Shown here: in pieces, positions 6,037-30,981 of the stretch
How the letters are laid out: every line of letters starts with the position of its first letter
How positions within the stretch are numbered: the stretch's first letter is position 1
Origin: Gemmatimonas sp.
GTDB taxonomy: Bacteria > Gemmatimonadota > Gemmatimonadetes > Gemmatimonadales > Gemmatimonadaceae
Assembly: GCA_040379205.1 (NCBI GenBank)
Contig: JBEILM010000005.1
Coordinates: 486-64,485 of the forward strand
Reading direction: 5' to 3'
Length of the DNA: 64,000 nucleotides
The notes under the pieces: model-generated
What the model was told of the DNA's origin: nothing
The model's input: the letters and a program-made list of their open reading frames with translations, nothing else
Databases searched by the model: none
Made by a program: the position numbers and the translations under genes

Positions 6037-7418
6037 GCGCCCTCCCGGCGCAGCACGCACACGGTCTCCACGTGTGCCGTCTGCGGAAACATGTCGAAAC
6101 ACTGCACGGCGTCCACCCGCCACGACGGCAGGCGCGACACGTCCCGCGCCAGCGTCCCCGGATCACAACTCACATAGACCACGGCGCGCACCGACGGACC
6201 TGCCTCCGTCTCCAGCCAGCGCGTGACGGCCGCCTCCACCCCGCGACGCGGGGGATTGAGCACGATCACGTCCGGACGCTCCGACACCCCGGCCGCCTCG
6301 GGCAGCGCGCGCTCCACCAGGTCACACACCACCCGCACCCGCCCCGCGACCGACGGGCCGGCGCGCCGGACCCGAGCCACACTCGCCTCGGCGCCCGCCG
6401 GATCGGCCTCGATCGCCACGACGTCCACGCCAGCCTCCGCCAACACCGCCGCGAGGCGTCCGGTGCCGGCATAGGCATCGACCACCCGCCGCGGGGACAG
6501 CGCCAGAACCTCGCCGAGGACGAACGCCCGCAGCGCATTCGCCACGACGGCGTTGACCTGTGCGAACGCGAGCGCCTCCTGTGCCGCCGGCCCCACGCCG
6601 GTGGATAGCGCGGCCGTGCCGGTAGTCGGAGCCTCAGCCGTCCAGAGTACCTGCGCCACCGCCGGGTGCGCGGCGCGGGCCGCCGTCGTCCACGCCTCCC
6701 GTGCAGGCCACGAGGCCCCGCCTTCGACCACCAGCGCCACCGATGGGGCCGAGCCCGCCTCCATGCCGCTCTCGTCGAGCCGGAGGGCCAGGCGCACCGC
6801 GGAGGCCTCGGGAAGCGCCGGCGCATTGCTGCGGAGCAGCGGGCGAAGCGCCTGCCACACGCCGACGAGGATGGGATGCGCGATGGCGCACTCCTCGAGG
6901 GGGAAGATCCGGGTCGGGTCGTCATGCGGGTGCAACCCACCGGCCCACCCAGCTCCGCGGCGGTGCAGCGTCAGCGTCAGGCGACCCCGGTACTCCCACT
7001 GCACGCCACTCACGATGGGCGGCAACGGGATGTCACGCCCGCCGATGCGGCGCAGGCTCTCCTGGACGATTTCCTGCCGAGCCCGCCGCTGGCTGGCCGG
7101 ATCCAGATGCTGGAGCTGGCAGCCACCGCACCGGTCCTGCTCATAGTGCCGGCATCGCGAGTCCACGCGGGCCGGCGACGGAGTCAACAGCTGCAGGACA
7201 CGTCCCCGCCCATGCCGGGCATGCATCGTGAGAGCGATCTGTGCCACATCGCCAGGTGCCGTACGGGGGACGAACACGGCGAGCCCCCCCACCCGGCCAA
7301 CACCGTCACCGCCGGCGGCGATGCGATCGATCGTAATCGTTTCCACCGACTCGGGGGCGCGTGTACTGCGCGACCGGCCGGCACCCGGCGACCGACCGCG
7401 CGGTTGCTGTCGCTTCAC
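6033..7418 (-). CDS. TRAM-domain RNA (uracil-C5)-methyltransferase, RlmD/RlmC family
   Basis: TRAM N-terminus (GGDGVGR), CxxxxxxCGGC Fe-S motif, YAGTG, NPPRRG, YVSCDPGTLARD, DMFPQTAHVE. Confidence 0.88.
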   Translation of the reverse strand: MKRQQPRGRSPGAGRSRSTRAPESVETITIDRIAAGGDGVGRVGGLAVFVPRTAPGDVAQIALTMHARHGRGRVLQLLTPSPARVDSRCRHYEQDRCGGCQLQHLDPASQRRARQEIVQESLRRIGGRDIPLPPIVSGVQWEYRGRLTLTLHRRGAGWAGGLHPHDDPTRIFPLEECAIAHPILVGVWQALRPLLRSNAPALPEASAVRLALRLDESGMEAGSAPSVALVVEGGASWPAREAWTTAARAAHPAVAQVLWTAEAPTTGTAALSTGVGPAAQEALAFAQVNAVVANALRAFVLGEVLALSPRRVVDAYAGTGRLAAVLAEAGVDVVAIEADPAGAEASVARVRRAGPSVAGRVRVVCDLVERALPEAAGVSERPDVIVLNPPRRGVEAAVTRWLETEAGPSVRAVVYVSCDPGTLARDVSRLPSWRVDAVQCFDMFPQTAHVETVCVLRREGA

Positions 7419-8963: not shown

Positions 8964-10529
<1,566 letters not shown>

Positions 10530-13766: not shown

Positions 13767-13856
13767 ACGGTCGGGTTTCTCCAGGCTCGCGGAACTGCAC
13801 TCGCCGCGCCGAGACAGGGGGACAGGTCGTGTCGGTTTCTCCGACGGGAACCCGGA

Positions 13857-13885
13857 AACGTAGGCCCCCCCGAGCCTTCCGGCAA
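13857..13885 (-). promoter_or_regulatory. Sigma70-type promoter of rpsA
   Basis: TTGCCG(13885-13880)-N17-TACGTT(13862-13857). Confidence 0.65.
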
Positions 13886-13917
13886 TGCCCCCCGACCGAC
13901 GCGCCCCACCCGAGCCG

Positions 13918-15927
13918 TCAGGCGGGGCTGAGCCGCTCCCGCGTGGCCCGCGCCAGGGCGACGATCCGCTCCACCTGTTCGGCCTGGGTCACGGTGGTTG
14001 TATCGATGGTGATGGCATCGCTGGCGGGAACGCTCTGGGTCGCATCCTGGGCATCCCGGGCCACCAGTGCCTCGACTTCCTGCGCGATCTCCGCGTCGGT
14101 CGGGCGCCGCCCGAGCCGCTGGATCAGCCGCCGGCGCGCCCGCTCCCGGGTGTCGGCGATCAGAAACACCTTGAGCTGGGCATCCGGGAAGACCGCCGTC
14201 CCGATGTCCCGGCCGTCCACCACGACATCCACGGCCGCGCCGGCCGCCCGTACCTGGTCATTAACCCACTCCCGAACGGGGCCCATCGCGGCCACCCGGG
14301 AGACGTGGCGGGTGACCGCATTCCCCCGCAGTGCCTCGTCCTGCACCTGCCCGTCGATGAGCGGCAGCACCGACCGCGTGGTCAGCCGCCGGGTGACCCG
14401 GTGCGCCGCTGACAGCACATGGTCGGGCGTCCAGGTGTCCGGGGCTCCCCCCGTGCCGAGCGCCAGGAACGTGATAGCCCGATAGAAAGCGCCCGAGTCG
14501 ACATGCCGCACATCCAGTTCCTCGGCGACCCACTGGGCCGTGGAGCTCTTGCCAGACGCCGCCGGCCCGTCGATCGCGATGACCAGCGGCGCCGGCATGG
14601 TGTGTGGAGCCAGCGCCCCGCCTGCCCCGCCCACGCTGGTCGGAGCGGGTCCCACCACGGCAGCCAGGTCACGCCAGAAGGTGGGATACGATACCGCCAC
14701 GCAGCCCGGGTCATCCACCATGATCGAATTGCCGGGCAGCGCTCCCAATACGCCGAACGCCATCGCCAGCCGATGGTCACCGTGCGTCGTGACCCGCCCG
14801 ACCATCGGGCGCCTCGACCCCATGATGCGCATGCCGTCCGGGAGTTCCTCGACCTCCGCACCCAGCCCACGCAGGTTGTCGACCACGGCCCGGATGCGGT
14901 CGCTCTCCTTGACCCGAAGCTCCTGCGCGTCGGTGACGACGGTCTCGCCGCCGGCGCGCGCCGCAAGACAGGCGAGCATCGGCAGCTCATCGATGCACCG
15001 CGGGATCTCCGCCCCGCCGATCCGGGTGCCGTGCAGCGACGCCGGCCGCACGACCAGCGTGCCGATCGACTCGCCGCCCACCTCGCGCTCGTCCTCCACC
15101 GCGATGTCCACCCCCATGCGGCGCAGCACGTCGAACGCGCCGGCGCGCGTGGGGTTGAGGCACACCTGCTCGAGACGCAACTCGCCGTCATCGGCCAGCG
15201 CCGCCAGCGCGACAAAAAATGTGGCGGACGAGGGATCCGATGGCACCGTGACGTCGGCTGCCACGAGGTGCTGTCCCCCGCGGAGCGTGATGGCGTGTTC
15301 GTCCTGCTCGAGCACGACCCCGCGGGCGCGCAACATGCGCTCGGAGTGATCGCGTGATCGGCGCGGCTCCTCGACCACCACGTCGACGCCCGAGGCGAGG
15401 CCGGCGAGCAGCAATGCGCCCTTTACCTGGGCACTGGCATGCGCATTCACGTACCGGATGGGACGCAGCGCCGCCCCATGGACACGCATGGGCAGGCCGT
15501 CGTGCCCGGGCGCCCCTTCGAACTCGATGCGGGCGCCCATGGCCGCGAGCGGCTCGGCGACACGCCGCATCGGCCGGCGACTGAGGCTCGCGTCACCCTC
15601 GAAGCGCGCGGACCGTCCAGCCAGCCCGGCCACGAGGCCCGCGAGAAGGCGCGTCGTGGTGCCACTGTTGGCACAATCAAGCGCCGATTCCGGCGAATGC
15701 AGCGCCGCCAGGCCGCGCCCCTGCACCACGAAGTCGGCATCGAGCGCAGGAACCGCCACGCCCATGGCGCGGAGTGCCCCGGCGGTTGCATGCACATCGG
15801 CGGAGCGGAGAATGTCGCGAATGCGCGTCTCCCCATCCGCTATGGCCGCGAACATGAGTGCCCGGTGACTGATGGACTTGTCGCCCGGGGCCCGGATGGT
15901 GCCCCGCACCACGAGGCGCGCCGGCAT
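13918..15927 (-). CDS. aroA-cmk: Fused EPSP synthase / cytidylate kinase
   Basis: PGDKSISHRA, NSGTTTRL, SAQVK, RDHSERML, LRVKESDRI, DHRLAM, then IAIDGPAASGKSS...VDGRDIGT of Cmk in one frame. Confidence 0.9.
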   Translation of the reverse strand: MPARLVVRGTIRAPGDKSISHRALMFAAIADGETRIRDILRSADVHATAGALRAMGVAVPALDADFVVQGRGLAALHSPESALDCANSGTTTRLLAGLVAGLAGRSARFEGDASLSRRPMRRVAEPLAAMGARIEFEGAPGHDGLPMRVHGAALRPIRYVNAHASAQVKGALLLAGLASGVDVVVEEPRRSRDHSERMLRARGVVLEQDEHAITLRGGQHLVAADVTVPSDPSSATFFVALAALADDGELRLEQVCLNPTRAGAFDVLRRMGVDIAVEDEREVGGESIGTLVVRPASLHGTRIGGAEIPRCIDELPMLACLAARAGGETVVTDAQELRVKESDRIRAVVDNLRGLGAEVEELPDGMRIMGSRRPMVGRVTTHGDHRLAMAFGVLGALPGNSIMVDDPGCVAVSYPTFWRDLAAVVGPAPTSVGGAGGALAPHTMPAPLVIAIDGPAASGKSSTAQWVAEELDVRHVDSGAFYRAITFLALGTGGAPDTWTPDHVLSAAHRVTRRLTTRSVLPLIDGQVQDEALRGNAVTRHVSRVAAMGPVREWVNDQVRAAGAAVDVVVDGRDIGTAVFPDAQLKVFLIADTRERARRRLIQRLGRRPTDAEIAQEVEALVARDAQDATQSVPASDAITIDTTTVTQAEQVERIVALARATRERLSPA

Positions 15928-15929
15928 CG

Positions 15930-16781
15930 TCACCGCAGCCACGCCTCCAGCGCCGTGGCGGCATCCGTCTTGTCGTCGCGGTACTTCACGATAACCGGCG
16001 TCTGGAGCGACAGCCCCTGCGCCTCACCGAAGGCCGACGACACCTTGCGCGCGCCCGGCACCACCACCGCCCCCTCGGGGATGATGAGCGGCTGGTCGGC
16101 GCTGGCGCGATGCACGGTTTCCTTGACCAAGTCATAGACGGGCGTGGCACGGGTGAGAATCACCCCGGCGCCAAGCACCGCCTTGCTGCGCACCACGGTG
16201 CCCTCGTACACCCCGCAGTTGCCGCCAACGATGACATCGTCCTCGATGATCACGGGCGAGGCATTGATGGGCTCCAGCACCCCGCCGATCTGCGCCGCGG
16301 CGCTCAGGTGCACCCGCTCGCCGATCTGTGCACAGCTCCCGACCAGTGCATGCGAATCCACCATGGTCCCGCGACCAACGTAGGCGCCCACGTTGATGTA
16401 CATGGGCGGCATGCACACCACGTTCGGGGCCAGGTAGGCGCCGCGGCGCACGCTCGACCCGCCGGGGACGATGCGCACCTGATTCTCCATGCGGAACTCG
16501 CGCGTGGGAAACGTATGCTTGTCGAAGAAGCTGAAGGGGGCGTGTGCCGCGAACTCGGTCACCCGACCGATGCGGAACCCGAGGAGGATGGCTCGCTTGA
16601 CCCACGGCACCGCGTACCAATTGCCCTGTGCATCGCGCTGCGCGGCCCGGATATCGCCGCGCTCGAGGTGCGCGATGGCGGTGTCGAACAGCTGCTGGGC
16701 ATCGTGCGCCAGCGGCGCGCCGCCGTCGAGCAAATGCGGGTCGTTGAAGCGCGCTTCGAGGTCAGCGATGGACAGGGCCAT
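15930..16781 (-). CDS. dapD: Tetrahydrodipicolinate N-succinyltransferase
   Basis: WVKRAILLGFR, RIVPGGSSVRRGAY, GGVLEP, hexapeptide repeats. Confidence 0.93.
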   Translation of the reverse strand: MALSIADLEARFNDPHLLDGGAPLAHDAQQLFDTAIAHLERGDIRAAQRDAQGNWYAVPWVKRAILLGFRIGRVTEFAAHAPFSFFDKHTFPTREFRMENQVRIVPGGSSVRRGAYLAPNVVCMPPMYINVGAYVGRGTMVDSHALVGSCAQIGERVHLSAAAQIGGVLEPINASPVIIEDDVIVGGNCGVYEGTVVRSKAVLGAGVILTRATPVYDLVKETVHRASADQPLIIPEGAVVVPGARKVSSAFGEAQGLSLQTPVIVKYRDDKTDAATALEAWLR

Positions 16782-16825
16782 GGTGAGGTGCGGGTACGGG
16801 CAGGAAGGTCAGGAGCGGAGACAGA

Positions 16826-17719
16826 TCAGACGGGCAGCCGGCCGGCCTGCTGCAGAATGTCGCGTACGGAAGCACGATGCGCCTCGGCCAGCGGCACCAG
16901 CGGCAGACGGAGCACCTCATCCATGCGACCCATCCAGGCGAGCATCGCCTTGGCCGGAATCGGATTCGATTCCACGAACGCCGCGTCGACGACAGGAGCG
17001 AGCGTGGCCTCGAGGGCTCGCGCGGTCGCCAGGTCCCCGCGCGACAGGGCGTCGTACAGCGCGGCCACCGCCCGCGGCATGACGTTGGACACCACGGAGA
17101 TGATGCCGTCTCCGCCGTGCGCCATGAGGGCGAGCGTAAAACCGTCGTCGCCGGCCAGCACGCTGAAGTGCTCGGGCCGGTCGCGAAGAATCGTGACCAT
17201 CTGTGCCAGACTGCCCGACGCTTCCTTCACCGCCACAAAGCGCGGATCGGCGGCGAGTTCCAAGCAGGTGCGCGCCTCGAGATTGACGGCCGTACGCCCC
17301 GGCACGTTGTAGAGCACGATGGGGAGCGCGCAGGCATCGGCGATGGCGCGAAAGTGCGCCATCAACGCACGCTGCGGCGGCTTGTTGTACATCGGCGTCA
17401 CGTGCAGCAGGTGCGTGGCCCCGATCGCCTGCATCTCGCGCGAGGTGGCGATCGCCTTCTGCGTGTCGTTGGAGCCGGCACCGGCGATCACCGGTACCCG
17501 CCCGTTGACCTGCTCCACCGTGATCTCCACCACGCGACGATGCTCGGCCGGCGTGAGGGTCACCGCTTCCCCTGTGGAACCGCAGGGGACGACCATGTGC
17601 ACCCCTTCGGCGAGCTGCCAGTCCACGAACGCGCGCAACGCGGGCTCGTCCAGCGACCCATCGGCGCGAAACGGCGTGACGAGGGCGGTTCCGCACCCGC
17701 GGAGTCGGATATTGGTCAT
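16826..17719 (-). CDS. dapA: 4-hydroxy-tetrahydrodipicolinate synthase
   Basis: ALVTPF, GSTGE, PMYNKP, LYNVPGRT, VAVKEASG, ESNPIPAK. Confidence 0.96.
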   Translation of the reverse strand: MTNIRLRGCGTALVTPFRADGSLDEPALRAFVDWQLAEGVHMVVPCGSTGEAVTLTPAEHRRVVEITVEQVNGRVPVIAGAGSNDTQKAIATSREMQAIGATHLLHVTPMYNKPPQRALMAHFRAIADACALPIVLYNVPGRTAVNLEARTCLELAADPRFVAVKEASGSLAQMVTILRDRPEHFSVLAGDDGFTLALMAHGGDGIISVVSNVMPRAVAALYDALSRGDLATARALEATLAPVVDAAFVESNPIPAKAMLAWMGRMDEVLRLPLVPLAEAHRASVRDILQQAGRLPV

Positions 17720-17728
17720 GACGGGCAC

Positions 17729-18442
17729 TCAGGCGGTGGCGGCGTCGCCACGGAGGAGGTCGCGCATGGTGTAGACCCCAGGGGCCCGTGGGGCTGCGAG
17801 CCAGCGCGCCGCGGCCAGGGCCCCATCGGCGAAGACCCGCCGGTCGCGCGCCTCGTGCACCAGCCGGATCTGCTCGAAGGGCGCATCGAGGATGACTTCG
17901 TGCGTGCCGGGGACGTCGCCCACGCGCACGCTGGTGATCGGCACCTGGTGCCCGAGACCGACCGCGAGGCATTCGCCGATCGCGAGGCCGGTGCCCGACG
18001 GGGCGTCCTTCTTCGCGGCATGATGCGTTTCCACCACGTGGCAGTCGAACCCCGCCACGTCACGCACCCGACGGGCGGCATCTTCCGCGAGGGCCAAAAA
18101 GAGCTGGACACCCAGCGAGAAGTTCGGTGACCAGAGCGCCGCGCCGCGATGGGTACGGACCGCCGCATCGAGCCGCGCGGCTTCGGCGTGCCACCCCGTG
18201 GTGCCCACCACGACGGGGCACCCGAGCGTTAACAGCGCCTCCGCATTGTCGAGCGCCGTTTCCGGTGTGGTGAATTCGATCGCGACCTGAGCGCCACCAA
18301 GATCGGTGAGGGTGAGGCCGCGCGTCATCTCGGGCGCATCGAGGCGCGCCACGACCGAGCACTCGCGCTCCGGCGCGAGCGCCTCGAGTGCGCGGCCCAT
18401 GCGGCCCATACCGACGAGCGCCACCTTCACGGGTGCGCTCAT
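17729..18442 (-). CDS. dapB: 4-hydroxy-tetrahydrodipicolinate reductase
   Basis: GMGRMG, VVGTTG, SPNFSLG, ETHHAAKKDAPSGT. Confidence 0.95.
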   Translation of the reverse strand: MSAPVKVALVGMGRMGRALEALAPERECSVVARLDAPEMTRGLTLTDLGGAQVAIEFTTPETALDNAEALLTLGCPVVVGTTGWHAEAARLDAAVRTHRGAALWSPNFSLGVQLFLALAEDAARRVRDVAGFDCHVVETHHAAKKDAPSGTGLAIGECLAVGLGHQVPITSVRVGDVPGTHEVILDAPFEQIRLVHEARDRRVFADGALAAARWLAAPRAPGVYTMRDLLRGDAATA

Positions 18443-19794
18443 GCCGGCTGCTCGAAGAAAGCGGCGTGCAGGCGCCGCATGGCCGGAACCACCTGTTCGT
18501 CGTCGATGACAAGCGTGAAGTTGATGCCAGTGGCACTGAGCGAGGCCATGTGCACCGGAATCGGTCCGAGCGCTGCGAGGGCCTGCGCCAAGGCCGCGCT
18601 GCCATCGGCGATGCCGGCGCCGACCACGGCAACCACGCCGCTGCGCCGCTCCACCGAGACATCACCGAACGCGGCGAGGTCCTGCAGAATCGCCGCGAGG
18701 TGATTCGTGCCGTCGAGCGTGACCGATACCGACACCTCCGACGTGGTGACCACATCGACCGACGTGCGGTGGGTTTCGAACACCTCGAAAACGCGGCGCA
18801 GGAAGCCCGGCGCGAGCAGCATGCGGGAGGAGCGCAGCTTGATCATCGTCGTGCTGCGCTTGCCGGCGATGGCGCGCACCGGGAGTCGCGGGGCGTCGAA
18901 GGCGATCATGGTCCCCTGTCCGCCCGGGTTGCGCGAGTTGAACACGTACACGGGGATGCCCCGCTGCACTGCGGGCGCAATGGTGGCAGGGTGCAGCACC
19001 TTGGCACCGAACGCCGCGAGCTCCGCCGCTTCCTCGAAGCTGATGCGCTCGATGAGCCGCGCCCCGGGAATGACGCGCGGATCGGCCGTGAGCATGCCGT
19101 CGACGTCGGTCCAGATCTCGATGCCGGCGGCGTCGATCGCCGCCCCGATCAGGGAGGCCGAATAGTCCGAGCCGCCACGCCCCAGCGTGGTGGTGACCCG
19201 CGCCGACGTGCTGCCCACGAAGCCGCCCAGTACCGGAATGCGCTGCTGCTGGAGCAGCGGCACGATGCGATCACGACAGGCCTGTTCGATGGCGTCGGTG
19301 TCGGGTTCCGCTCTGGTGAAGAAGTCGTTCGTGCGCATGACATCGCGGGCGTCGACGAAGACCCCGGGGAACCCGCGCTGCCGAAATGCCGCCGCCACGA
19401 TCTGCGACGACAAAAGCTCCCCCACCGCAGCCACGGCATCGAGGGACCGCGGCGCGAGGTAGCCGAGGATTCGGAACGCTTCAGCGAGGTGCGCGAGCTC
19501 CTCGAATGCCGAGCCGATCTCGAGGGCGAGTTCATCGGCGTCGGGCGTACCTGCGAGCAGCGCCTGAGCTTCCCGCAGATGCCGCTCGCGGAGCTGCTCG
19601 ATGATCTGCAGGGCGGCCAGCAACTCCCCGTTGGCCGCCATGTGGGCGAGGTCGAGCAGCTGATTGGTGGCGCCTCCCAGCGCCGACACCACCACCACCG
19701 GCTGCTGCTCGAGCTTGGCGGTCACGATGTCGACGACCCGCGTGATCGCCGCCGCGTCGGCGACGGAGGTCCCGCCGAACTTGCAGACGATCAC
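18439..19794 (-). CDS. lysC: Aspartate kinase (LysC-type, two ACT domains)
   Basis: KFGGTSVAD, TTLGRGGSDYSA, WTDVDG, GAKVLHP, TTSEVSVS. Confidence 0.95.
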   Translation of the reverse strand: MIVCKFGGTSVADAAAITRVVDIVTAKLEQQPVVVVSALGGATNQLLDLAHMAANGELLAALQIIEQLRERHLREAQALLAGTPDADELALEIGSAFEELAHLAEAFRILGYLAPRSLDAVAAVGELLSSQIVAAAFRQRGFPGVFVDARDVMRTNDFFTRAEPDTDAIEQACRDRIVPLLQQQRIPVLGGFVGSTSARVTTTLGRGGSDYSASLIGAAIDAAGIEIWTDVDGMLTADPRVIPGARLIERISFEEAAELAAFGAKVLHPATIAPAVQRGIPVYVFNSRNPGGQGTMIAFDAPRLPVRAIAGKRSTTMIKLRSSRMLLAPGFLRRVFEVFETHRTSVDVVTTSEVSVSVTLDGTNHLAAILQDLAAFGDVSVERRSGVVAVVGAGIADGSAALAQALAALGPIPVHMASLSATGINFTLVIDDEQVVPAMRRLHAAFFEQPA

Positions 19795-20867
19795 GATCCG
19801 CGCAGCCCCGCCAACTGCCCGGTGGCCACGAGCAGCTCGGCGTTGAGGATCGATCCGCCGGCGGCTCCGCGCACGACATTGTGCGACATCGCCACCAGTC
19901 GCAGATCGAACAGATGGTCCTCACGGACGCGGCCCACCGTGGTGGCCATGCCACGCCCGGCATTCACGTCGCGCCGCGGCTGCGGACGGTCGAGCTCATC
20001 CCGAATGATCAGCGCCGGCTCCGGCGCCGAGGGGAGCCCGCGCACGGCGCTGTGTCCGGTCCACGCGCGCAGCACCTCGAGGGCCTGCGCCGGCGTCGGC
20101 TTTTGTGCAAACGCGACCGAGAGACACACGGTGTGTCCATGCTCGACCGGCACGCGATTGGCATGGGCGCTGGTCACGATGTCCGCATGCATCACCGTGG
20201 TCCCGTCGAAGGTGCCGAGCAGCTTGACCAGTTCGGTCTCGATCTTGGGCTCCTCGTCGCCGATGTACGGAATGACATTCCCGAGGATGTCGAGTGACGC
20301 CACACCTGGATAGCCGGCCCCGGAGACCGCCTGCATGGTGGTGGCGAACACCTTCGTCACCGTGAAGGCACGGTGCAGCGGCGCCAGCGCCGCCGCGATG
20401 ACGGTCACGGCACAGTTGGCGTTGGTGACGATGCCACCGCACCATCCGCGCACAGCCCGCTGATGCGCGAGCATGGCCAGGTGATCGCCGTTGACCTCCG
20501 GGATCACCAGCGGCACGTCCGGCGCCATGCGGTAGTTCTTGGCGTTCGACAGCACGAGCCGACCGGCCCGCGCAAAGGCGGCCTCGACCTCGCCGGCCAC
20601 GCCGGAATCGAGCGCCGAAAAGACGATCGGCGCCGTGACCTCATCGGGGGTGCAATTGCGCACGGGCAACGCGGCCACAGCGGACGGCAGCCGCCCCTCG
20701 AGCCAACGGGCGGCCTCCCGATACGGTTTGCCGGCGCTTCGCTCTGATGCGGCGACTTCGACGAGATCGAACCAGGGGTGCCCGTCGAGCGAGCGAATGA
20801 AGGCCTGTCCGACGGCACCGGTGGCGCCGAGGACGGCGACCGGCCAACGAGTGGCGGAGGTTGTCAT
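19791..20867 (-). CDS. asd: Aspartate-semialdehyde dehydrogenase
   Basis: VLGATGAVGQ, TNANC, QAVSGAG, NRVPVEHGH, HNVVRGAAG. Confidence 0.95.
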   Translation of the reverse strand: MTTSATRWPVAVLGATGAVGQAFIRSLDGHPWFDLVEVAASERSAGKPYREAARWLEGRLPSAVAALPVRNCTPDEVTAPIVFSALDSGVAGEVEAAFARAGRLVLSNAKNYRMAPDVPLVIPEVNGDHLAMLAHQRAVRGWCGGIVTNANCAVTVIAAALAPLHRAFTVTKVFATTMQAVSGAGYPGVASLDILGNVIPYIGDEEPKIETELVKLLGTFDGTTVMHADIVTSAHANRVPVEHGHTVCLSVAFAQKPTPAQALEVLRAWTGHSAVRGLPSAPEPALIIRDELDRPQPRRDVNAGRGMATTVGRVREDHLFDLRLVAMSHNVVRGAAGGSILNAELLVATGQLAGLRGS

Positions 20868-21856
20868 GCGAGCAGGGTGCGGACGATGCGGACGTAGGCG
20901 TCGACCGACGCCTCGAGTTCCGCCACATCGATGTACTCGATGGGCGTGTGCGCCACGTGGATGGAACCGGGCCCGAAGAGCAGCGGCGTGCCCCAGCGAT
21001 CAAGCAGCGGGATGTCGCTGGTGTAGGCCACCGGCGCGACGGCGAAGCCGTCGATCACGTGGAAGTGCTGCGCGGGAATGTGCGACCCCCACACGAGTTC
21101 GGCGCGATCGCCGGCCCAGGCGGTGAACGCCTGCTTCACCGGTGCCACGTCGCCCACGAGGCGGATCATGATCTCCGCTTCGGCCATCCCGGGCACGATG
21201 TTCGCCTCGGTACCGGCGCGGAGCACGCCGATGTTGTACGTGGTGGCGCCCAGGACGGGATCGACCGGCAACTGGAGGGTGCGCAACTCGGGGAGCATGT
21301 CGAGCAGCGGCTCGAGGGCGCTCTGCCCGAGATGGGCGTACGCCGAATGCGCCTCCCGGCCGCGCACGCGCACGATGACCCGCTGCGCCCCCTTTCCGCC
21401 CGAGGCGAGGGTGCTTTCGGTCGGCTCGCCATTGACGAGGAACCGGCTGGTGGCGGGCAGCCGGTTGGCGGCGCGCGCACCGGGCGAGCCCTTCTCCTCC
21501 CCCACCACATACAGCAGGTCGACGCGCTCCTCCCCTTCATCGGCGAGTCGCTGGGCCGCGATCATCATCGCGGCGGCGATGCTCTTGGCGTCGCACGCGC
21601 CGCGCCCGGAGAGCCGGCTCCCTTCGAGCCGAGGGGGAATGAAGGGGGGCACGGTGTCGAGGTGGGTGGACAGGGTGACCCCGCCCCCGCGCCGCTTGGC
21701 CCAGAGATTGGACCGGCCCGGTTCGACTTCCTGCAGGGAGACGTTCCACCCATGGCCGACCAGCCAGCGGGAGGCGAAGTCCACCGCCTCCCGCTCGCGG
21801 CCAGTGGTGGACTCGATGGACAGCAGTTCGGTGGCGAGGGCGACGACGTCGGACAT
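20864..21856 (-). CDS. M20/M25/M40 metallopeptidase (ArgE/DapE family), first gene of the dap operon
   Basis: THLDTVPP, GRGACDAK, VGEEKG, GEPT, GSIHVAHT. Confidence 0.85.
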   Translation of the reverse strand: MSDVVALATELLSIESTTGREREAVDFASRWLVGHGWNVSLQEVEPGRSNLWAKRRGGGVTLSTHLDTVPPFIPPRLEGSRLSGRGACDAKSIAAAMMIAAQRLADEGEERVDLLYVVGEEKGSPGARAANRLPATSRFLVNGEPTESTLASGGKGAQRVIVRVRGREAHSAYAHLGQSALEPLLDMLPELRTLQLPVDPVLGATTYNIGVLRAGTEANIVPGMAEAEIMIRLVGDVAPVKQAFTAWAGDRAELVWGSHIPAQHFHVIDGFAVAPVAYTSDIPLLDRWGTPLLFGPGSIHVAHTPIEYIDVAELEASVDAYVRIVRTLLA

Positions 21857-21923: not shown

Positions 21924-24900
21924 TTACACGGTGATGGCGAGCCCCCGGTAGATGCGGGCCTTGTACCGGCTGTGCACGGGCTCCGGCAGGGGCGCGCTGG
22001 CCAGCAGGACCGCGTGGGCGAACCGCTCCTGCTCCTCCGCCTGTTCGGCCGTGTCCCGCGGCTCCTCCGATCGAACCCGCCGGGTGAGGTTGATCTGGTT
22101 CACGGGGACGTTGTGCACGAGGCGCTCGTTCTCCATGCCGAGCGTGGCCGTGAGCGCATGCAGCGTCGTCTTCACGAAGTTGGCCAGCGCGAACTCGGCG
22201 TGGGTGGGCCGCACGGGCACGTCCGGCGACACGAGTACGAGGCGCACGTGGTCGAGCAACAATACCTTTCGGGCGATGCGGAGGTGATGGGTGAGATGCG
22301 CCTCGACGAGATCGGCGAAGCCGCCGGCGTCGAGCGCCGGCGTCCCGTCGTCCCGGAAGATCTGCGCCGGCAGGGGCGTGAACGGGGTGGAGACCACGGC
22401 GGCCGGCGCGCCGCCGGCGAGCAGCGCGCGGTCCATCCCTGCCTCGAGGTCGTCGCCGGTGACGATGTTCTCGATGCGTTCGGCGCCCAGCACGATGCGC
22501 AGCAGCGACTGCACATCGCGCCCCGCCTCGGCACTGCGCGTGAGCAGCATGATGCGCCCGACCTGGCTCTGCTCGAGGGCCAGCCGCGCCGCCCGCGCCA
22601 GGTGCGAAGTGAGATATTCGCCGATGAGCCAGATGGTCTGCCCGCGCATTTTGGCCACCCGTTCCGGCTTCGCCCGTCCGAACAGTTCGCGCTCGGTGAT
22701 GGCACGCTCCTGGTGCAGCCCCCCCGACGGTTGAAACGTCTCGCCGCTGACGGCCCGGTCACTCAGGAAGAACACGGTGGCCAGCGCCACCTCCACTTCG
22801 GTGGGCATGTTGCGCAGGTGGAGCATGCCCACGACGCCCTTGCCGATCTTCTCCGCCTCACGCGCGATTTCCCGCGCGGCGATGAACGGCGACGCCTCGG
22901 GCAGCGCGGCCAGCACCGCCGCGTCATTGCCCTGCACCAACCCGAGCAGCCCGTCGATGTCGGCGCCCTGCCGCAGCGCCTCGATGATGGCGGCGTATAC
23001 CGCATTCAGCCGACGGTTCTCGAGAAAAGCCGACCACGCCGCTCGAACAATCCGGGCTTCCCGCCCACGCTCCGCAGGCGGTTGCCGTCCACCGGCCCCG
23101 GCGCGATGGCGTTGACCTGAATCTCCGGGCCCACGATGCGGGCGAAGTTCTCGGTGATGGCGCGCTGGCCGGCCTTGGAGACGGCGTAGTCGGCACGATT
23201 CGGATACGGCACGGCCACGTACTTCTCGCCGCCGAAGTACGAGGACACGTTGAGGATGTAGCCCGTGCCCTGGCGCTTCATGATGGGCACGACCTTCTCG
23301 ATGAGCGAGTAGTTCGAGATGAGGTTTGCATTGAGCGTGGCGCGCCACGCGTCGATGTCCATATCGACTACCATCTGCTCAGCGCCGGCGACACCGGCGT
23401 TGTTGACGAGGTAGTCGATACGCCCGAACGCCTCCATCGTCGCCGCGACCGCGCGGCCGAGCGACGCTTCGTCGGCCACGTCGACATCGGCCAGCGTACG
23501 GACCCGGTCGAGGGCCCCGTTGTACCCGATGTCCTCCAGTTCGCGCACGATCCCGCTGCGCATCTCCTCGAGTTGGTCGGCACGGCGCGCCACGAGCATC
23601 ACACGCGCGCCGGCAATGGCGAGCAGGCGCCCCAACTGTCCGCCGATCCCCGCTGAGCCACCGGTAATGAGCGCCACCTTGCCCAGGTGCAGCCCCATCA
23701 GCGACTCCATCCACCCGAAGATGGCGCGCCGGGAGCCGGTCGCCTCGACGATGGATGCCGGCAGGTAGAGGTTGACCGGCCGAATGCGCCGCCGCGTGAA
23801 CAGCAGCCGCGCCGCCTGACCGGCGGCGAAGGGGACCTCTTCGGAATCGCGATTCCCCCACCGGATGATCTGGTTGGACCACTCCACGAAGGGGCGCTCG
23901 CCCGCCTGTTGCTGGGCATCCGATTCGTCGCGCCAGACGCGGCACAGCTCCTCCAACGCCCCGCGCAGCACGTCCGCATACACGTTGCCGTGCCCGTCAT
24001 CCCCATTCGACAGGAACACCACCCGCGGATCGGTGACCATGCCGGTCGGTTGCTGCCAGAGGCGAGTGAGGGCACGCGCCAGCGCCATCATGCCCGCGAT
24101 CTCGCCATCGAGGAAGGCCCCGACATCGCTGTCCGAGAGCGCCACGAAGTCGCCGCGGAAGCGCCACGCGCCGAACGCCGGCATGATGATCGCGCCGTGC
24201 AGCGTCTCCCCGTCTTCGCCTATCTCGCCGAAGAACGCCCGCACGGTGTCCTCACGCGAACGATCGAGCAGCGACACCCGGATGCGCTGGTCCACTGCGT
24301 CGAGACCAAGCGCGTCCTCGGCGGCACGCACGCTTTCCTCGCTGCCCAGCGTGAGCCGCACCTCGGCACCGCAGCTGGCCTGCACACGCGCCACGGCCAG
24401 GGCATCCGTCACCTGGTCACCAGCGGCCACCAGCACGCGCAGTCCGGATCCGTCCACGGTGCGCAGCTCGGGGCGCGACGCCCAGGTGCTCCGCGACTCC
24501 TGCCGCACACTCATGCCATGCGTGACTTCGAAGTTGTGCCCGTTGAGTGCCGCCGACTCGTCGCTGGCCAGAAACACAATCGTGTTGGCGACATCGGAGA
24601 CGGTGGGGAAGCCCTTCGTCGGCACCGTGGACTCCGTCGGCGCCTCCACCGGCGGCGGACCATCGGCCGCCGCCGCAATGCGCGCCAGCGCCGGATTGCG
24701 CGAGAGCGTCATCAGCCCCAGGAAATCCTCGGCCGTCGTGCCGGCAGCGACCTTGCGCAGGCCGTCCATGGCCGCGAATACAGTGCGGATACGGGGCGAT
24801 TCGATGGGACCGGGGAAGACGGTGTTCACCCGGATGCCGCGCGGCCCGAGCTGCGCGGCGAGCAGCCGGCTGAAGGTGTTGAGCGCGGCCTTCGGTACCA

Positions 24901-25522
24901 CATCGGCGGCCCGACTGTAGTACTGGGTACGCGAAAAGATAGTGGACACGTTGATGACCGACGCGCCCGCCTCGAGGTGAGGCGCCACTGCGCGGACCAG
25001 TTTCCACGCGAGCCCGAGAAGATTGCGCGCGGCGGCACCGACCGTCTCCGACTCCACCAGCCCGCGTTCGGCGAGGTGGGCCAGATCGGCGGCGTCGAAG
25101 GGCAGATCGAGCAGTCGGCACTTGGGCCCCGCAGTCTCGGCATTGTTCACCAGGATGTCGATGCGCCCAACGGTGGCAAGCAGCTGCGTGATCGCGCTGC
25201 GTACCTGACCGGGTTCGCCGGCGTCCATCGGCAAGACCACGATCCGGGACGCCGGCACGTGCAGCTCCTCGCGCAGTGCCGCACGAGCCGCATCGAGCCT
25301 GCGACGGTCACGCCCGGTCATCACCACGGTGGCGCCCTCGCGCAGGAACCGGCGCGTGATCCCGGTGCCGATGTTGCCGGCCGCCCCGGTGATGACGGCG
25401 ACCTTGCCCGCCAGCCGCCCGCGCGGCGCGCGTCGCCGCTCGCGGCCGGTTTCGGTCCCGGTCTCCGAAGCCACGGTGTCGCCGCCAGCGGTGGCCGTCT
25501 CGCCTGTCCGTCGTCCGCTCAT
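21924..25522 (-). pseudogene. mcr: Bifunctional malonyl-CoA reductase (Chloroflexus Mcr type), split by a 1-nt frameshift near 23025-23028
   Basis: ORF 23006-25522 has RLAGKVAVITGAAGNIG, VNTVFPGPIESPRIRTVF, LHLGKVALITGGSAGIGGQLGRLLA and YPNRADYAVSKAGQRA. The second frame continues LENRRLN...GETFQPSGGL...RIYRGLAITV, matching the recalled Mcr C-terminus. One added base gives a 1199-aa protein. Confidence 0.88.
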
Positions 25523-28500
25523 CGCTGCATCTCCTGTGCTGCCCAGGCTTCGTAGAGATGATCGACCGTGCGCAGCCCGAGCGCGGGCAACGCGTGATTC
25601 ACGACGTAGGTGGCACCGGTATGCCGATTGTCCCACATTGCCTGATGGGCCTCGGCCAGTCCCTCCCACGGTACCACGGTGGGAGTGGTGACTTCGAGCA
25701 GACCGGCATCCACCATCTCATTTATGCGGACCACCTCGTACGCGTTGCACAGGTGCGTACCGAGGATGCTGGCGGTTGGCATGAGGATGCGGCGCTGGCG
25801 TGTCCACACCTGAGGCGCATAGAAGCTGTAGCGGCGGTGGCGCATGTCCTCGAAGTACAGCACGCGACCAGTGAACGGCTGCACCAGCGACGTGGACACC
25901 GCGAGCGCATCGTGACCGGCGCGTTCGATGATCACCGACGGCGCGCCGCGCGGATTGTCCGCCGACCGGAGCACCCGGCCCACGGCGGAGCCGAACGGCT
26001 TCAGCGTATGCTCCTGAAAGGCCCGCACGGCGTCACGGAATGCCGCCGAGTCGCGCCGGACGTCGGGCAGCGACGGCATGGTCGGGGGCCACGAGAATTC
26101 ATCGCCCAGCCGGCGTCCCAGTTCCTCGAGCGCGATCATCCCACGAATGCGATCGCCGAAGCCCAGCGACTGGACGAACTCACGCTGCGCATCGGTGCGC
26201 GTCACGATGCAGCCACGCGCGCCGGCGGCAGCCACCGCCTCGATCGCCACCAACCCATCCGGATCGACCAACTCCCCCTCGGGCAACCCGACGCCGTAGT
26301 ACACGAGCGCCGCCTCACCCGCGCGCACCGCAGCACGACGCAACATGGCGTCGGGAGCCACGGCGCCCGGCTTGCCCACGAACGTGAAGTGGTACCCCGA
26401 CGAGGCGCCATAGAAGGTGAGCGCCCCGCCCTCCTCCAGCAGCTGGAAGCTCCGCGGGAACGCACGCTCGCCGGCATGCGACACCACATAATCGGCCAGG
26501 TGACCGTCATGCTGCGCACGAAAGGCAGCGCTGAGCGCGTCGCCCTCCGCCTCCCACACCGCGATCGCCTCGGCTCCCTCCGGCACCATGCGGAACGCCG
26601 AGGCCCACGAGGGATCGGCACGATTCAGGAAGCCACGCCCACCGAACGACGTCACCACCGCACCACGTGCCTCGCTGGACACGAGACCGGTGACGGCGCA
26701 TCCGTGTTGCGAGGCCGCCTTGAGCGCCTCGAGGCCCGTGCCCGTGGCAGCGCCCTCCACCAGAATGGTGCGCCCCGGCTCGACGCGTAGCGTCGTGAAC
26801 AGGGCGCGCACGATGGTGCCGAGGTTCAGGATGTATGAACCGGCCGCCTCCAGCGAGAGGTCCTGCGGCACTGGATGCAGCTGTGGCGCCTGCACGGCGA
26901 GGAACTGCTGATGGCTGCCGGTGCGCGACTCGTATCCCTGGATGCGGAAGTCTGCCGACATTGGATCGCGGGCCGCGAACGGGGACAGCAGCGCGCTCTG
27001 CCCACTGTAGACGGCCACCAGGTCGCCCACACGCAGCCGCCCCTCGGCCTTCGCTTCGCTGCCGAGCGCCGCCACGAGCCCTACGCCGCCGGAGCCGGTG
27101 ACCTGCCAATCCTGATCGTGATTGTCGAACGGCGAAACCGGAATGCCGGTGATAGCCCAGATGTCGTTGAAGTTCACCTCCGACGCCAGCATGTACACAA
27201 GGGCTTCGTTCGGCGAGGGCGTGTCCACCGGAACCAGCAGCTCGTGCTCCACCTCGGCGGGTAACCCGTGCCGGGGCGCACCCGTCTCCGGGTCGCGCAC
27301 GACGCCCTGCCCCAATTGCCACGCCGGAATGGGGGTGACGCCGGGATAGAACGGCGCGCCCACCGGCAGCAGGTCGCCGCGGGCGATCAGGTCGGCGCGA
27401 CGGTCGCTGCCCACGACCTGCCGCCGTGTGGGGAGCGGCGCGCTGCGCCGATCGAAGAAGGCGCGGATGCCCGCCTTACCCCCGGCCGGATCGACGACGG
27501 CTTCGGCGAAGAGCCGCGCCTCACGGGCGAGGCCGGCGGTGAGACCGTCACGCCAGCCCGTGCGCACGGCATCGAGGATGCGCCCGGTGGCCCCCGCGCG
27601 ACCGACCCGCTCCGCCTGGGCCAGGAGTCGGGTCACCGGCGGGAGCGCCAACAGCCCTTCGACGTCGAGGTGCCCCGCCGCATCCCACGCCCGCCGCCGC
27701 TCGGCGACCGTCGCCATATGGCGTCCGAACGTCGTCCGGCCTTCCTCTGCGAGCCACTCGCGCACCAGGGCCGCGGCGCGCGCTACCGCATCGTCGCTGC
27801 CGGACACCACCTCGTCGATGACACCGGCGGCCAGCGCCTCGGTGGCATCGAGCTGCCGTCCACCCAGGATGATCTCCATGGCCTGCACGAATCCCTCGGC
27901 GCCATCGCGATCGGCGAGCAGTCGCGTGAGGCGCTGCGTGCCACCATAGCCCGGCAGGAGGTTGAGTCGAATCTCCGGCTGCCCGAACACCGCCACCGGC
28001 TCGGCGATACGATAGTGACAGGCCAGCGCGAACTCGAGACCACCCCCGAGCGCCACACCGTTGATGGCCGCGACACAGGGTTTGCCCATGCGTTCGATCA
28101 TGCGGAATGCCAGATGCGCCACATTGGGAAGCGGTAGCGCCTCCTCCAGCGTGTGCACGTCCTCCAGCAACTGCCGCACATCGGCGCCGGCCACGAACGA
28201 GCTGTTGCCGCCGCCGGTGAAGAGCACCGCGCGCACATCCTCCTGTCGCGACAGGTGCTCCACTACCGTGCACAACTCGTCGAGCGCCCGCTCGTTGAGC
28301 GCATTGACCGGCGGGTTGCTGACCGTGACCACGGCCAGCCGCGCGCCCGGCTGCAGCGTGTGGTAATGCACCCGGAAGTAGCGCCACGACACGAGCACCC
28401 GTTGCGCCTCGCTGATGCGCTGCACCGCCTGCCACTGCCCGATCACCTGCGCCAGTGCCGGAATGCTCTCGGGATTGCGCAGGGTGGTGGTGTCCCCGAT

Positions 28501-30981
28501 GGATTCACCGTCGACCAGGGCCCGCACCATGCGGCGCATGTACTTGCCACTGCGGGTTTCGGGAAACGCGGCCACCTCGAGAAACTCCTCGGGCACGGCC
28601 ACGGCGCCCTTCTCCTGCCGTACCAGTTCGGTGAGACGGCGACGGTCGTCCATGGTGATGCGACGGCCGGCGGCGGGCACGACGAAGGCCAGCGGCGTCA
28701 GCCCCTTCTCGCGATGCGGCGCCCCCACCACGATGACGTTGCCCACCGGGGAGTCGGGGTTGACCTGCTTGTCGCGCAGGATGGCTCCCTCGATCTCCTC
28801 GGTGCCCATGCGATGGCCGCTGACGTTGATCACATCGTCGCTGCGGCCGTGCAGCGAGAAGCTGCCATCGGCATGACGGATGGCCACATCGCCCTGCGTG
28901 TAGGCCCACGCCCCCTGCCAGCGCGCCCAGTAGGTGGCGCGGTAGCGCTCGGCGTCACCTCGCCACGAGGGAACCACACTGCCGTCGGTGACCTGAAAAC
29001 CGTCGGCGTCTCCCCAGATGGTGCGCGCCAGGTAGGGATAGGGTGCCTGGATGACGATCTCACCCTTTTCACCATCCGCCGCCCGTCGTGACGGCAGCCG
29101 GCCTGCGGCGTCGGGCTCGCCTGCAGGGATCCATACATCCCCGTCAACCCACGGCAGCGGATAGGTGTGCGCATCCGGCCGCAGCGGGAACGCCGCATTG
29201 CCAAAGAAGTGCGTCCATACGATGCCGCCGTGCTCGGTGGCCCAGTACGAGTTGATGTACTGTGGACACAGATGATCCATCCCGAACTGCTGCACGGCCA
29301 GTGACACCGGCTCGGCGCAGAAGGTCGCCACGCGCAGGCCGCTCACGTCGTGGCGACGCACGTCCTCGAGGTTCTGCGGATCGGTCATCACCGACTTGAG
29401 GAACGTGACCCCCGCCTTGAAGATCGTTACGCCATACCGCTCGATGATGGACGCGAACCGGCCGGCACTCGGAAAGACGGGCGCGCCCTCGGCCAACATC
29501 GACGTGACGCGCGTCGCCAGCGCGGCGGCAATCATGTACGACTGTCCCGTGATCCACCCCGGATCGGCCACCACGTACATCACATCACCGGGGCGCGCAT
29601 CGAACGCCACGCGCATGGTGTGCGACACACCGGCCAGCCAGCCACCGTGCACGTGCACTACGCCCTTCGGCTTCCCGGTCGAACCGGACGTGTAGATGAA
29701 GAACAGTGGAAACTCGGCATCGACCGGGCGTGGCGGCACCACCCGCCAGATCTCGCGCACAAGCGATGCATCGTCGAGTGCGCGCAGGGCGTCGACGCCG
29801 CGAACCACGCTGCCGGCCGCCTGCAGCTGCGCAAGCAGCTCCGCATCGGCGTCGGCCAGGAGCTCGTGCGCCCACCGATCGCGACCGGCACGCCACGGGA
29901 CATCCGCCTGCCCGGTATGTCGTACCACCACGACGTGCTCCACCGCACTGGTGACGCCGACCAGTGCCCGCGCGCACCCCGTACGCGCCGCGCTCGCGCT
30001 CGCGGCGTCGAGCACACCGGAGTCCACGTGCGCCGCCAGCGCGCGCCCCACGCCGCGCATGACATCGCTGCGTTCCACAGTGATCTCGCCGGAAAGGGCG
30101 CGCGTCACCTCGTCGGTGAGGCGCGTGCGCGCGTCGTCGGTGAGGCCGAGCGCCACCGCTGCTTCGCGCACCGCCGCTACAGCCCGCGGCACCGGGACAT
30201 ACCGATCGAGTGCCGGATCGGTGTATGCCGCCTTGAACGGCACGATCTGCGCGTTGCGATAGCCGCCATCGGCGGTGATGACCACGCGCGCCCCGGCATC
30301 GCACACGCGATCGGCCAGCGTCTTGTCGGAGAAGCCGCCGAAGACGGGCGTGTAGACAATGCCCAGCCGCTTGGCGGCCTCCGTCCACGCGACCTGCTCC
30401 GGAATGTTCGGGAGGTTGAGCGCGATGCGGTCGCCCGTGCGGAGGCCAAGGCGACGCAGGGCGATGGCGCATCGGGCAACTTCGAGGAGCAGGTCGCGCC
30501 GAGTCCAACGCCACGCGACGACGGGCCCACCGCGCCCGCCATCGAGCGACTGGTCCCAGCGATCGCCTTCCACGAAAAACGCTGCCTCTGCTCCATGGCC
30601 CGCGAGCACGTGGCGATCCACTTCGTTGAAGCAGGCGTTCGTGCGGGCGCCCACGAACCAGCGATAGTTCGGCGGATCCGCGTCGTCGAACGCGAGCGAC
30701 CACGGGGAGAAGTCGGCCTCGGCCGACCAGCTGACGGGGCCACCCGTGCGCCCATCGTATCCGCGCCAGGCGCCGTCCGCATCGCGCGTCAACCAGGCCT
30801 GCGCCGCCGGCACGTACCAGTGCAGCATCTCGGCGGCGATCGCACCATGCCAGCCTCCCGGATCGCGCTGACAGGCGTCACGTATCGTGTGCCAGTCGTC
30901 GCCGGTGCGAATGGGGTTGGCAACGACAGGAGCGGCGTGGTCCGGGGACATGCCCGGAACCGATCGCGGAGTCACGGTCAT
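25519..30981 (-). CDS. pcs: Trifunctional propionyl-CoA synthase (3-hydroxypropionyl-CoA synthetase / dehydratase / acrylyl-CoA reductase)
   Basis: 1820 aa. ACS domain (YTSGSTGKPKG, YWATEHGG, ETRSGKYMRR), crotonase domain (GGGLEFALACH, QPEIRLNLLPGYGGTQRL) and Ecr/MDR domain (SEVNFNDIW, GAATGTG, GTHLCN). N-terminal NPIR...W..HGAIA and EGDRWD..GRGGPVV match recalled Pcs. Confidence 0.95.
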   Translation of the reverse strand: MTVTPRSVPGMSPDHAAPVVANPIRTGDDWHTIRDACQRDPGGWHGAIAAEMLHWYVPAAQAWLTRDADGAWRGYDGRTGGPVSWSAEADFSPWSLAFDDADPPNYRWFVGARTNACFNEVDRHVLAGHGAEAAFFVEGDRWDQSLDGGRGGPVVAWRWTRRDLLLEVARCAIALRRLGLRTGDRIALNLPNIPEQVAWTEAAKRLGIVYTPVFGGFSDKTLADRVCDAGARVVITADGGYRNAQIVPFKAAYTDPALDRYVPVPRAVAAVREAAVALGLTDDARTRLTDEVTRALSGEITVERSDVMRGVGRALAAHVDSGVLDAASASAARTGCARALVGVTSAVEHVVVVRHTGQADVPWRAGRDRWAHELLADADAELLAQLQAAGSVVRGVDALRALDDASLVREIWRVVPPRPVDAEFPLFFIYTSGSTGKPKGVVHVHGGWLAGVSHTMRVAFDARPGDVMYVVADPGWITGQSYMIAAALATRVTSMLAEGAPVFPSAGRFASIIERYGVTIFKAGVTFLKSVMTDPQNLEDVRRHDVSGLRVATFCAEPVSLAVQQFGMDHLCPQYINSYWATEHGGIVWTHFFGNAAFPLRPDAHTYPLPWVDGDVWIPAGEPDAAGRLPSRRAADGEKGEIVIQAPYPYLARTIWGDADGFQVTDGSVVPSWRGDAERYRATYWARWQGAWAYTQGDVAIRHADGSFSLHGRSDDVINVSGHRMGTEEIEGAILRDKQVNPDSPVGNVIVVGAPHREKGLTPLAFVVPAAGRRITMDDRRRLTELVRQEKGAVAVPEEFLEVAAFPETRSGKYMRRMVRALVDGESIGDTTTLRNPESIPALAQVIGQWQAVQRISEAQRVLVSWRYFRVHYHTLQPGARLAVVTVSNPPVNALNERALDELCTVVEHLSRQEDVRAVLFTGGGNSSFVAGADVRQLLEDVHTLEEALPLPNVAHLAFRMIERMGKPCVAAINGVALGGGLEFALACHYRIAEPVAVFGQPEIRLNLLPGYGGTQRLTRLLADRDGAEGFVQAMEIILGGRQLDATEALAAGVIDEVVSGSDDAVARAAALVREWLAEEGRTTFGRHMATVAERRRAWDAAGHLDVEGLLALPPVTRLLAQAERVGRAGATGRILDAVRTGWRDGLTAGLAREARLFAEAVVDPAGGKAGIRAFFDRRSAPLPTRRQVVGSDRRADLIARGDLLPVGAPFYPGVTPIPAWQLGQGVVRDPETGAPRHGLPAEVEHELLVPVDTPSPNEALVYMLASEVNFNDIWAITGIPVSPFDNHDQDWQVTGSGGVGLVAALGSEAKAEGRLRVGDLVAVYSGQSALLSPFAARDPMSADFRIQGYESRTGSHQQFLAVQAPQLHPVPQDLSLEAAGSYILNLGTIVRALFTTLRVEPGRTILVEGAATGTGLEALKAASQHGCAVTGLVSSEARGAVVTSFGGRGFLNRADPSWASAFRMVPEGAEAIAVWEAEGDALSAAFRAQHDGHLADYVVSHAGERAFPRSFQLLEEGGALTFYGASSGYHFTFVGKPGAVAPDAMLRRAAVRAGEAALVYYGVGLPEGELVDPDGLVAIEAVAAAGARGCIVTRTDAQREFVQSLGFGDRIRGMIALEELGRRLGDEFSWPPTMPSLPDVRRDSAAFRDAVRAFQEHTLKPFGSAVGRVLRSADNPRGAPSVIIERAGHDALAVSTSLVQPFTGRVLYFEDMRHRRYSFYAPQVWTRQRRILMPTASILGTHLCNAYEVVRINEMVDAGLLEVTTPTVVPWEGLAEAHQAMWDNRHTGATYVVNHALPALGLRTVDHLYEAWAAQEMQR

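Follow-up and report, generated by a model that had tools for sequence, protein, structure and literature searches.

The pcs-mcr locus

We report the analysis of a gene for malonyl-CoA reductase, mcr, an enzyme of the 3-hydroxypropionate (3-HP) bicycle, which lies on the minus strand of a 64,000-nucleotide stretch of contig JBEILM010000005.1 from Gemmatimonas sp. (GenBank assembly GCA_040379205.1); this whole stretch is referred to below as the window. The bifunctional enzyme is built from four tandem SDR (short-chain dehydrogenase/reductase) domains and an alpha-helical lid, and its gene stands next to pcs, which encodes propionyl-CoA synthase. Judged by the lesions it has accumulated and by the rate at which it evolves, this copy of mcr is very probably a pseudogene. 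The features on which the analysis draws are as follows.

21924..25522, minus strand: mcr, putative pseudogene (bifunctional malonyl-CoA reductase, K14468, four SDR domains and a lid), assigned from homology, the frameshift, the deletion and an omega (dN/dS) of 0.81
25522..23006 (838 aa) and 23348..21924, minus strand: the two mcr open reading frames (ORFs) that follow from the frame break near 23027
24890..25138, minus strand: SDR1 active-site stretch, with G129E, N174K, G203S and Y207D and with the Lys of YxxxK kept
23025..23029, minus strand: mcr frameshift, located by comparison with relatives
22891..22892, minus strand: junction of a 207-bp in-frame deletion in mcr, located by comparison with relatives
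25519..30981, minus strand: pcs (propionyl-CoA synthase, a ligase-dehydratase-reductase fusion of 1820 aa), intact and under purifying selection

The ATG of mcr (25522-25520) overlaps the TGA of pcs, which lies upstream, in the sequence ATGA. When the first mcr ORF was compared with the PDB using phmmer, the full-length Mcr structures 8hi4 (Roseiflexus, E=9e-230) and 8hjw (Chloroflexus, E=7e-226) were recovered, and the same ORF also aligns to the N-terminal half of the Porphyrobacter dokdonensis enzyme, 6k8v. Jointly the two ORFs cover essentially the entire length of 8hi4 and 8hjw, and all four tandem SDR domains are represented. Set against the enzymes of R. castenholzii/C. aurantiacus (8hi4, 8hjw) and P. 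dokdonensis (6k8v, 6k8s), the gene in the window is thus homologous over its whole length, with the same order of SDR1, SDR2, SDR3 with the extra domain (ED) that forms the lid, and SDR4; the catalytic motifs of SDR3 are intact and the gene adjoins pcs. It departs from these enzymes in having Asp in place of the SDR1 Tyr, NNAE in place of NNAG, a lid from which about 69 of some 150 ED residues are gone, a frame broken at codon 832/833 and a neutral mode of evolution. The corresponding 1268-aa protein of a sister lineage, P0004, aligns end to end with the known Mcrs.

The closest named homolog is that of Gemmatimonas groenlandica (P0022, 76% identity). This and the Mcrs of three congeners (G015, G019 and G022) share with the window the order pcs-mcr and an N-terminal extension, and are 75-97% identical to it in SDR1-SDR2. 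Unlike the window gene, these Gemmatimonadota Mcrs are encoded by open frames of about 1250-1280 aa (1258-1282 aa in the three congeners), and in all of them the Tyr, the Gly and the lid are retained. No second copy of mcr was found in the window's genome, an assembly of 507 contigs that is 99.8% complete.

Lesions in both halves of Mcr

At the position of the catalytic tyrosine of SDR1 the minus strand carries the codon GAT (24904-24902), which gives Asp207 (Y207D), and at 25138-25136 the codon GAG turns NNAG into NNAE (G129E); the translation holds INVSTIFSRTQYYSRAADVVPKAALN (in its longer form NVSTIFSRTQYYSRAADVVPK) and IDILVNNAETAG. Both substitutions had been proposed in an initial annotation made from the sequence, which suggested alignment to the Chloroflexus and P. 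dokdonensis enzymes as a check. In our phmmer alignments these two structures, together with that from Roseiflexus, all have Tyr opposite Asp207 and Gly opposite the Glu of NNAE. In a MAFFT alignment of 112 full-length Mcr homologs, which defines the conservation of columns given throughout, Tyr207 is Tyr in 112/112 sequences, none of which has Asp there, and the Gly of NNAG is likewise Gly in 112/112. Both substitutions are confirmed and are not chance variation.

Two further changes lie close by: G203S (AGT, 24916-24914; a column of 105 Gly and 7 Ala) converts YYGR to YYSR beside the substrate-binding Arg, and N174K (25003-25001) alters a column that is Asn in 106/112. The Lys of YxxxK (AAG, 24892-24890) and the Thr of the triad are retained, and the Thr-Tyr-Lys catalytic triad of SDR1 is incomplete by virtue of the Asp. 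By residue count on the phmmer alignment Asp207 corresponds to Tyr178 of RfxMCR, which, within the triad Thr165-Tyr178-Lys182, is the proposed proton donor to malonate semialdehyde; Tyr172 and Arg175 of the same domain hold the semialdehyde substrate (PMC10470521). The Chloroflexus equivalent of Tyr178 is Tyr171 (bioRxiv 10.1101/2023.03.21.533589).

The C-terminal half retains YLVNNAGVAG and LNVSSYFGGEKYVAVPYPNRADYAVSK, the latter comprising the SDR3 triad Ser-Tyr-Lys and the YxxRxxY motif, so that on translation the earlier description of this half as having an intact triad and NNAG proved correct for these motifs. In PMC10470521 the residues of the SDR1 triad were exchanged for Ala and assayed, and Ala mutants of the corresponding SDR3 residues are reported to have lost all activity. 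The lesions of this half lie elsewhere, and were located in a three-way DNA alignment of the window, the relative L005 (ENA ERZ27268108, 99.3% identical) and the outgroup L006 (93.7% identical). Near 23027 the relatives read GGCTCATTCTCGAG and the window GGCTT-TTCTCGAG, a replacement of CA by T with a net change of -1. A stop follows five codons past this lesion and the frame ends after 838 codons, and the uninterrupted frame of about 1200-1280 codons expected of an Mcr is not present in the window. Lost beyond the frameshift are SDR4 in its entirety, with the equivalent of the CoA-binding Arg1164, the last part of SDR3 and what was left of the lid.

The second lesion, the 207-bp in-frame deletion at 22892/22891, is common to the window and L005 and takes away about 69 aa of the alpha-helical lid of the malonyl-CoA-reducing half, roughly residues 849-904 of RfxMCR. 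In that enzyme the ED spans residues 783-932 (PMC10470521); it closes over malonyl-CoA and contributes CoA-binding residues (PMC10470521; bioRxiv 10.1101/2023.03.21.533589). Among 114 full-length sequences the segment is missing only from the window and from the L005 protein, P0003. Furthermore, the three-way comparison assigns eight nonsynonymous changes to the lineage of the window, seven of which fall in columns that are at least 92% conserved and which are spread over both halves: to the four changes in SDR1 are added G818S (Gly in 112/112), F1081L (Phe in 111/112) and S1088L (Ser in 103/112).

Programmed frameshifting at 23027 was considered and rejected, as the canonical slippery heptamer is absent, the recent CA-to-T change is found in none of the other homologs and mcr carries many other lesions.

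Haplogroups, selection and the rest of the pathway

Ten further assemblies of this species, derived from different runs, were found by exact-protein look-up of neighbouring genes and, with the window, they fall into two haplogroups. The productive queries were the M20 peptidase, asd, smtA and a cluster variant; look-ups with the pcs and smtB proteins of the window gave no matches, and that with DoxX gave contigs of haplogroup A only. The state of mcr in the two groups is as follows.

Haplogroup A (window, SRR8256178, SRR24300479): mcr frameshifted (838 + 337 aa), Tyr207 and the Gly residues lost, lid deletion present; own fixed changes Y207D, G203S, V523L, G818S, F1081L and S1088L
Haplogroup B (eight assemblies, among them ERZ27268108 and ERZ27268114): mcr frame open (1199 aa), Tyr207 and the Gly residues kept, lid deletion present; own fixed changes E474K (Glu in 110/112), V759A (Val in 109/112), E1154K (Glu in 112/112), L587R and others

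The frameshift is seen also in L026 and L023/L032, in which the gene calls are likewise split into 838 and 337 aa, and is absent from the eight assemblies of group B. Within haplogroup A, NNAE is present in two of the three assemblies (the window and SRR24300479), residue 174 is Lys in two and Arg in the third, and SRR24300479 has in addition Y201N, by which the equivalent of RfxMCR Tyr172 is lost. One assembly of haplogroup B has R198L in a column that is Arg in 112/112.

Selection was assessed by comparing the window with L005, with 11 flanking genes as the reference.

mcr: 20 nonsynonymous to 9 synonymous changes, omega 0.81, p=0.67 for departure from neutrality
pcs: 13 nonsynonymous to 19 synonymous, omega 0.24, p=7e-5
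11 flanking genes: 17 nonsynonymous to 31 synonymous, omega 0.20, p=4e-8

The purifying selection that would be expected of a working Mcr is not seen: mcr differs from the flanking genes (Fisher p=0.005) and from pcs (p=0.04), and dN/dS is neutral in both of its halves. On the haplogroup-B branch alone, where the Tyr and the open frame are still present, the ratio is 12:5 in mcr against 5:16 in the flanks (p=0.008). Because the relaxed signal is significant on that branch, mcr was freed from constraint earlier than Y207D, the simplest timing being that of the lid deletion which both haplogroups share, or some point preceding it.

By its substitution pattern pcs, translationally coupled upstream of mcr, is still constrained, and its frame of 1820 codons is uninterrupted in every assembly in which the gene is complete. 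The initial annotation had suggested that mcr is decaying while pcs is kept, and had proposed a comparison of their dN/dS. The first part of this is supported by the lesions and the omega of mcr, and the second by the intact frame and low omega of pcs; the long-term retention of pcs is not proven, since haplogroup B (L005, L024-L031) has fixed G747R (window 28743) in the invariant block NPDSPVGNVIVVGAPH, at a Gly found in 120/120 sequences. The window keeps this Gly and has M1753I, in a column that is Met in 120/120. In haplogroup B, pcs may also be starting to decay.

The genome to which the window belongs is that of a phototroph, with intact pufL and pufM (contig C7:42575-44233; Photo_RC, 344 and 322 bits). 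Within the genus mcr and pcs occur in 4 of 25 genomes, always both together. The congener G015 has a cluster smtA-smtB-mct-mcl-mch, whose mct scores 695 bits to TIGR04253 and matches 7xkg/8apq at 1e-198 and whose mcl matches 6kin/4l7z at 1e-190; G015 and G019 both keep mct and mcl, and G015 also mch. A tblastn search of the window's genome with the G015 proteins recovered smtA, smtB and only three fragments of mcl, and no ortholog of mct or mch was found by it in this nearly complete assembly. All three of smtA (421 aa), smtB and mcl (351 aa) are intact at the same locus in the sister lineage L044, which is syntenic and 92% identical.

The mcl relic (contig C67:17172-17861; positions 9172-9862 of locus L015) has an internal deletion of 355 bp in both haplogroups and, in haplogroup A only, an extra 4-bp insertion, AGAA (L015 9397-9400). 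Its divergence between the haplogroups is 1.45%, near the synonymous rate. In smtA (contig C67, L015 about 6640-6800) the GATCAG of the sister lineage has become GAATAG, which places TAG at codon 5 in the window's genome and in both haplogroups; the next canonical start lies 54 codons downstream, beyond the conserved N-terminal GIRVIDVGNFLAGPY motif. The smtB gene is intact. An earlier proposal based on G015, that mct and mch had been deleted between and after smtB and mcl, was withdrawn, as the smtA-smtB-mcl arrangement of the sister lineage is also without mct and mch there. Taken across these genes, the decay of the pathway would span mcl, smtA, mct and mch and predate the loss of the Tyr.

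Downstream of the mcl relic, at about L015 10209-10242, a DoxX_2 gene differs in length between the groups: its product has 124 aa in haplogroup A and 109 aa in the sister lineage, and a 1-bp indel brings it to 76 aa in haplogroup B. This region includes a stretch of 249 bp that is present in this species and absent in the sister lineage (compared with L044 and L036).

The Calvin-Benson-Bassham cycle was considered as a replacement and rejected: the sole gene of the RuBisCO family (C18:45466-46758) falls far below all curated NCBIfam cut-offs, and the top match of its protein, OiaX, reaches 211 bits where 700 are required. This protein is probably RuBisCO-like (form IV).

Probable decay of the pathway and alternative explanations

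We consider it very likely that the mcr of the window is a relic of a 3-HP bicycle which was inherited by a phototrophic Gemmatimonas-like species, the genes being still present in its congeners, and was then dismantled. Before the haplogroups split, mcl would have lost its 355 bp, smtA would have gained the stop at codon 5 and Mcr would have lost about 69 aa of its lid, after which mcr would have drifted neutrally in both haplogroups. In haplogroup A this drift would have brought Y207D, G203S, G818S, F1081L, S1088L and the frameshift at codon 832/833, and G129E and N174K would have come later still within that group; the order of events within the haplogroup is that which we infer from the distribution of the changes. 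Y207D reads, on this sequence evidence, as a lesion acquired late, when the gene could already be dispensed with. The locus would then yield neither an active malonyl-CoA reductase nor an active malonate-semialdehyde reductase. The most plausible present role for Pcs, in line with the use of external 3-HP or acrylate suggested in the initial annotation, is the assimilation of these compounds into propionyl-CoA, which would be taken up by the methylmalonyl-CoA mutase route; methylmalonyl-CoA mutase is retained in the genome, and therefore propionyl-CoA from Pcs can be used.

Several observations weigh against this account. Despite its early stop, smtA differs at only 1 of 1104 bp between the haplogroups, which is unexpected for a gene long dead. 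That the lid deletion abolishes activity is a deduction. The divergence is low and the counts behind dN/dS are accordingly small, and on the branch of the window's lineage alone the difference between mcr and the flanks is not significant (8 nonsynonymous to 4 synonymous against 7 to 10, p=0.26). Finally, the nonsynonymous changes of haplogroup A are not evenly spread: 9 of 10 fall in columns at least 90% conserved, where 38% would be expected (p=0.001, and only p=0.05 at a threshold of 95%), and they are concentrated in the 79-codon SDR1 active-site stretch (p of about 0.004-0.05 in a post-hoc scan).

This last pattern raises the alternative that the SDR1 changes were selected in a gene already dead as an Mcr, and that, with the rest of the bicycle gone, they shut down the remaining NADPH-dependent malonate-semialdehyde reductase or give it a new use. 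Possible reasons are that such an NADPH-binding reductase is harmful once the rest of the cycle is gone, or that SDR1 is turning into a non-catalytic or differently specific SDR. Five of the ten changed codons of haplogroup A lie in residues 129-207 (G129E, N174K and then R, Y201N, G203S and Y207D), which must represent at least three separate steps since none of G129E, K174R and Y201N is found in all assemblies of the group, and haplogroup B has no such clustering (p=0.9). Both the width of the scanned segment and the conservation threshold were chosen post hoc, though, and the 6:1 ratio of nonsynonymous to synonymous changes in the SDR1 stretch does not exceed the neutral ratio significantly. 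Once Tyr207 has been lost, moreover, additional inactivating changes bring no gain, the frameshift and the lid deletion argue against a preserved protein function, and GC-to-AT mutation tends to strike glycine codons where the genome is GC-rich; the concentration in SDR1 could be chance together with this pressure on glycine codons. We regard selected silencing as unlikely, while noting that, if true, it would be a case of adaptive gene inactivation caught within a natural population.

A more doubtful explanation still is that sequencing or assembly errors, or a chimeric consensus, produced the substitutions and the frameshift in a metagenome-assembled genome (MAG) of 507 contigs, the frameshift being located in a short run of T and A. 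The initial annotation had held that indel errors cannot explain the substitutions, and we concur: Y207D, G203S, G818S, F1081L, S1088L and the frameshift recur in SRR8256178 and SRR24300479, Logan assemblies from other runs and another assembler, which differ from the window at 40-42 other sites, and the frameshift replaces CA by T without changing the length of a homopolymer. Because the lesions co-segregate with the haplogroups across independent assemblies, eight of which are consistently in the other state, they are real and neither assembly errors nor simple homopolymer errors, and this explanation is highly improbable.

Least credible of all is the proposal, also made in the initial annotation, of a functional variant that stops at malonate semialdehyde and leaves another dehydrogenase to complete the route to 3-HP, for although the SDR3 triad, YxxRxxY and the C-terminal NNAG are intact and mcr is still coupled translationally to an intact pcs, it is contradicted by the broken state of the C-terminal half itself, with its frameshift, shortened lid and changes at the near-invariant columns of G818S, F1081L and S1088L, as well as by neutral dN/dS in both halves and by the broken or absent downstream genes of the bicycle.

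Partial 3-HP sets, with mcr and pcs and without a full bicycle, have been described in aerobic anoxygenic phototrophs, and 3-HP markers in Gemmatimonadota MAGs (PMC9802188; bioRxiv 10.64898/2026.09.02.748891); genes of the bicycle are reported in MAGs of Gemmatimonadales (PMC9802188). The window's genome resembles these in being that of a phototrophic, pufLM-positive member of the Gemmatimonadota with mcr and pcs, and differs from them in that its mcr, though present, appears to be dead and its mcl is gutted. Taken alone, mcr is an ordinary pseudogene of a known enzyme family. More widely, it is a warning to metagenomic surveys in which finding mcr, alone or together with mcl or pcs, counts as evidence of the 3-HP bicycle. 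Markers of this kind are the recent basis for suggesting that the Gemmatimonadota may be new users of the pathway. The present genome has mcr and recognisable fragments of mcl and yet would be unable to run the cycle, and a survey based on presence only could misread it. The eleven assemblies also offer a natural time series of the stepwise dismantling of a multi-gene carbon-fixation pathway in a phototrophic Gemmatimonas, with early, shared lesions in mcl, smtA and the Mcr lid, later lesions specific to individual haplogroups, and a constrained pcs that points to a pathway-independent role for Pcs.

Downstream of mcr, at 11967-21856 on the minus strand, lie genes for an M20 peptidase, asd, aspartate kinase, dapB, dapA, dapD, aroA-cmk and rpsA. 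Because this conserved housekeeping block adjoins it, the pcs-mcr pair is in a core-genome context and not on an obvious island.

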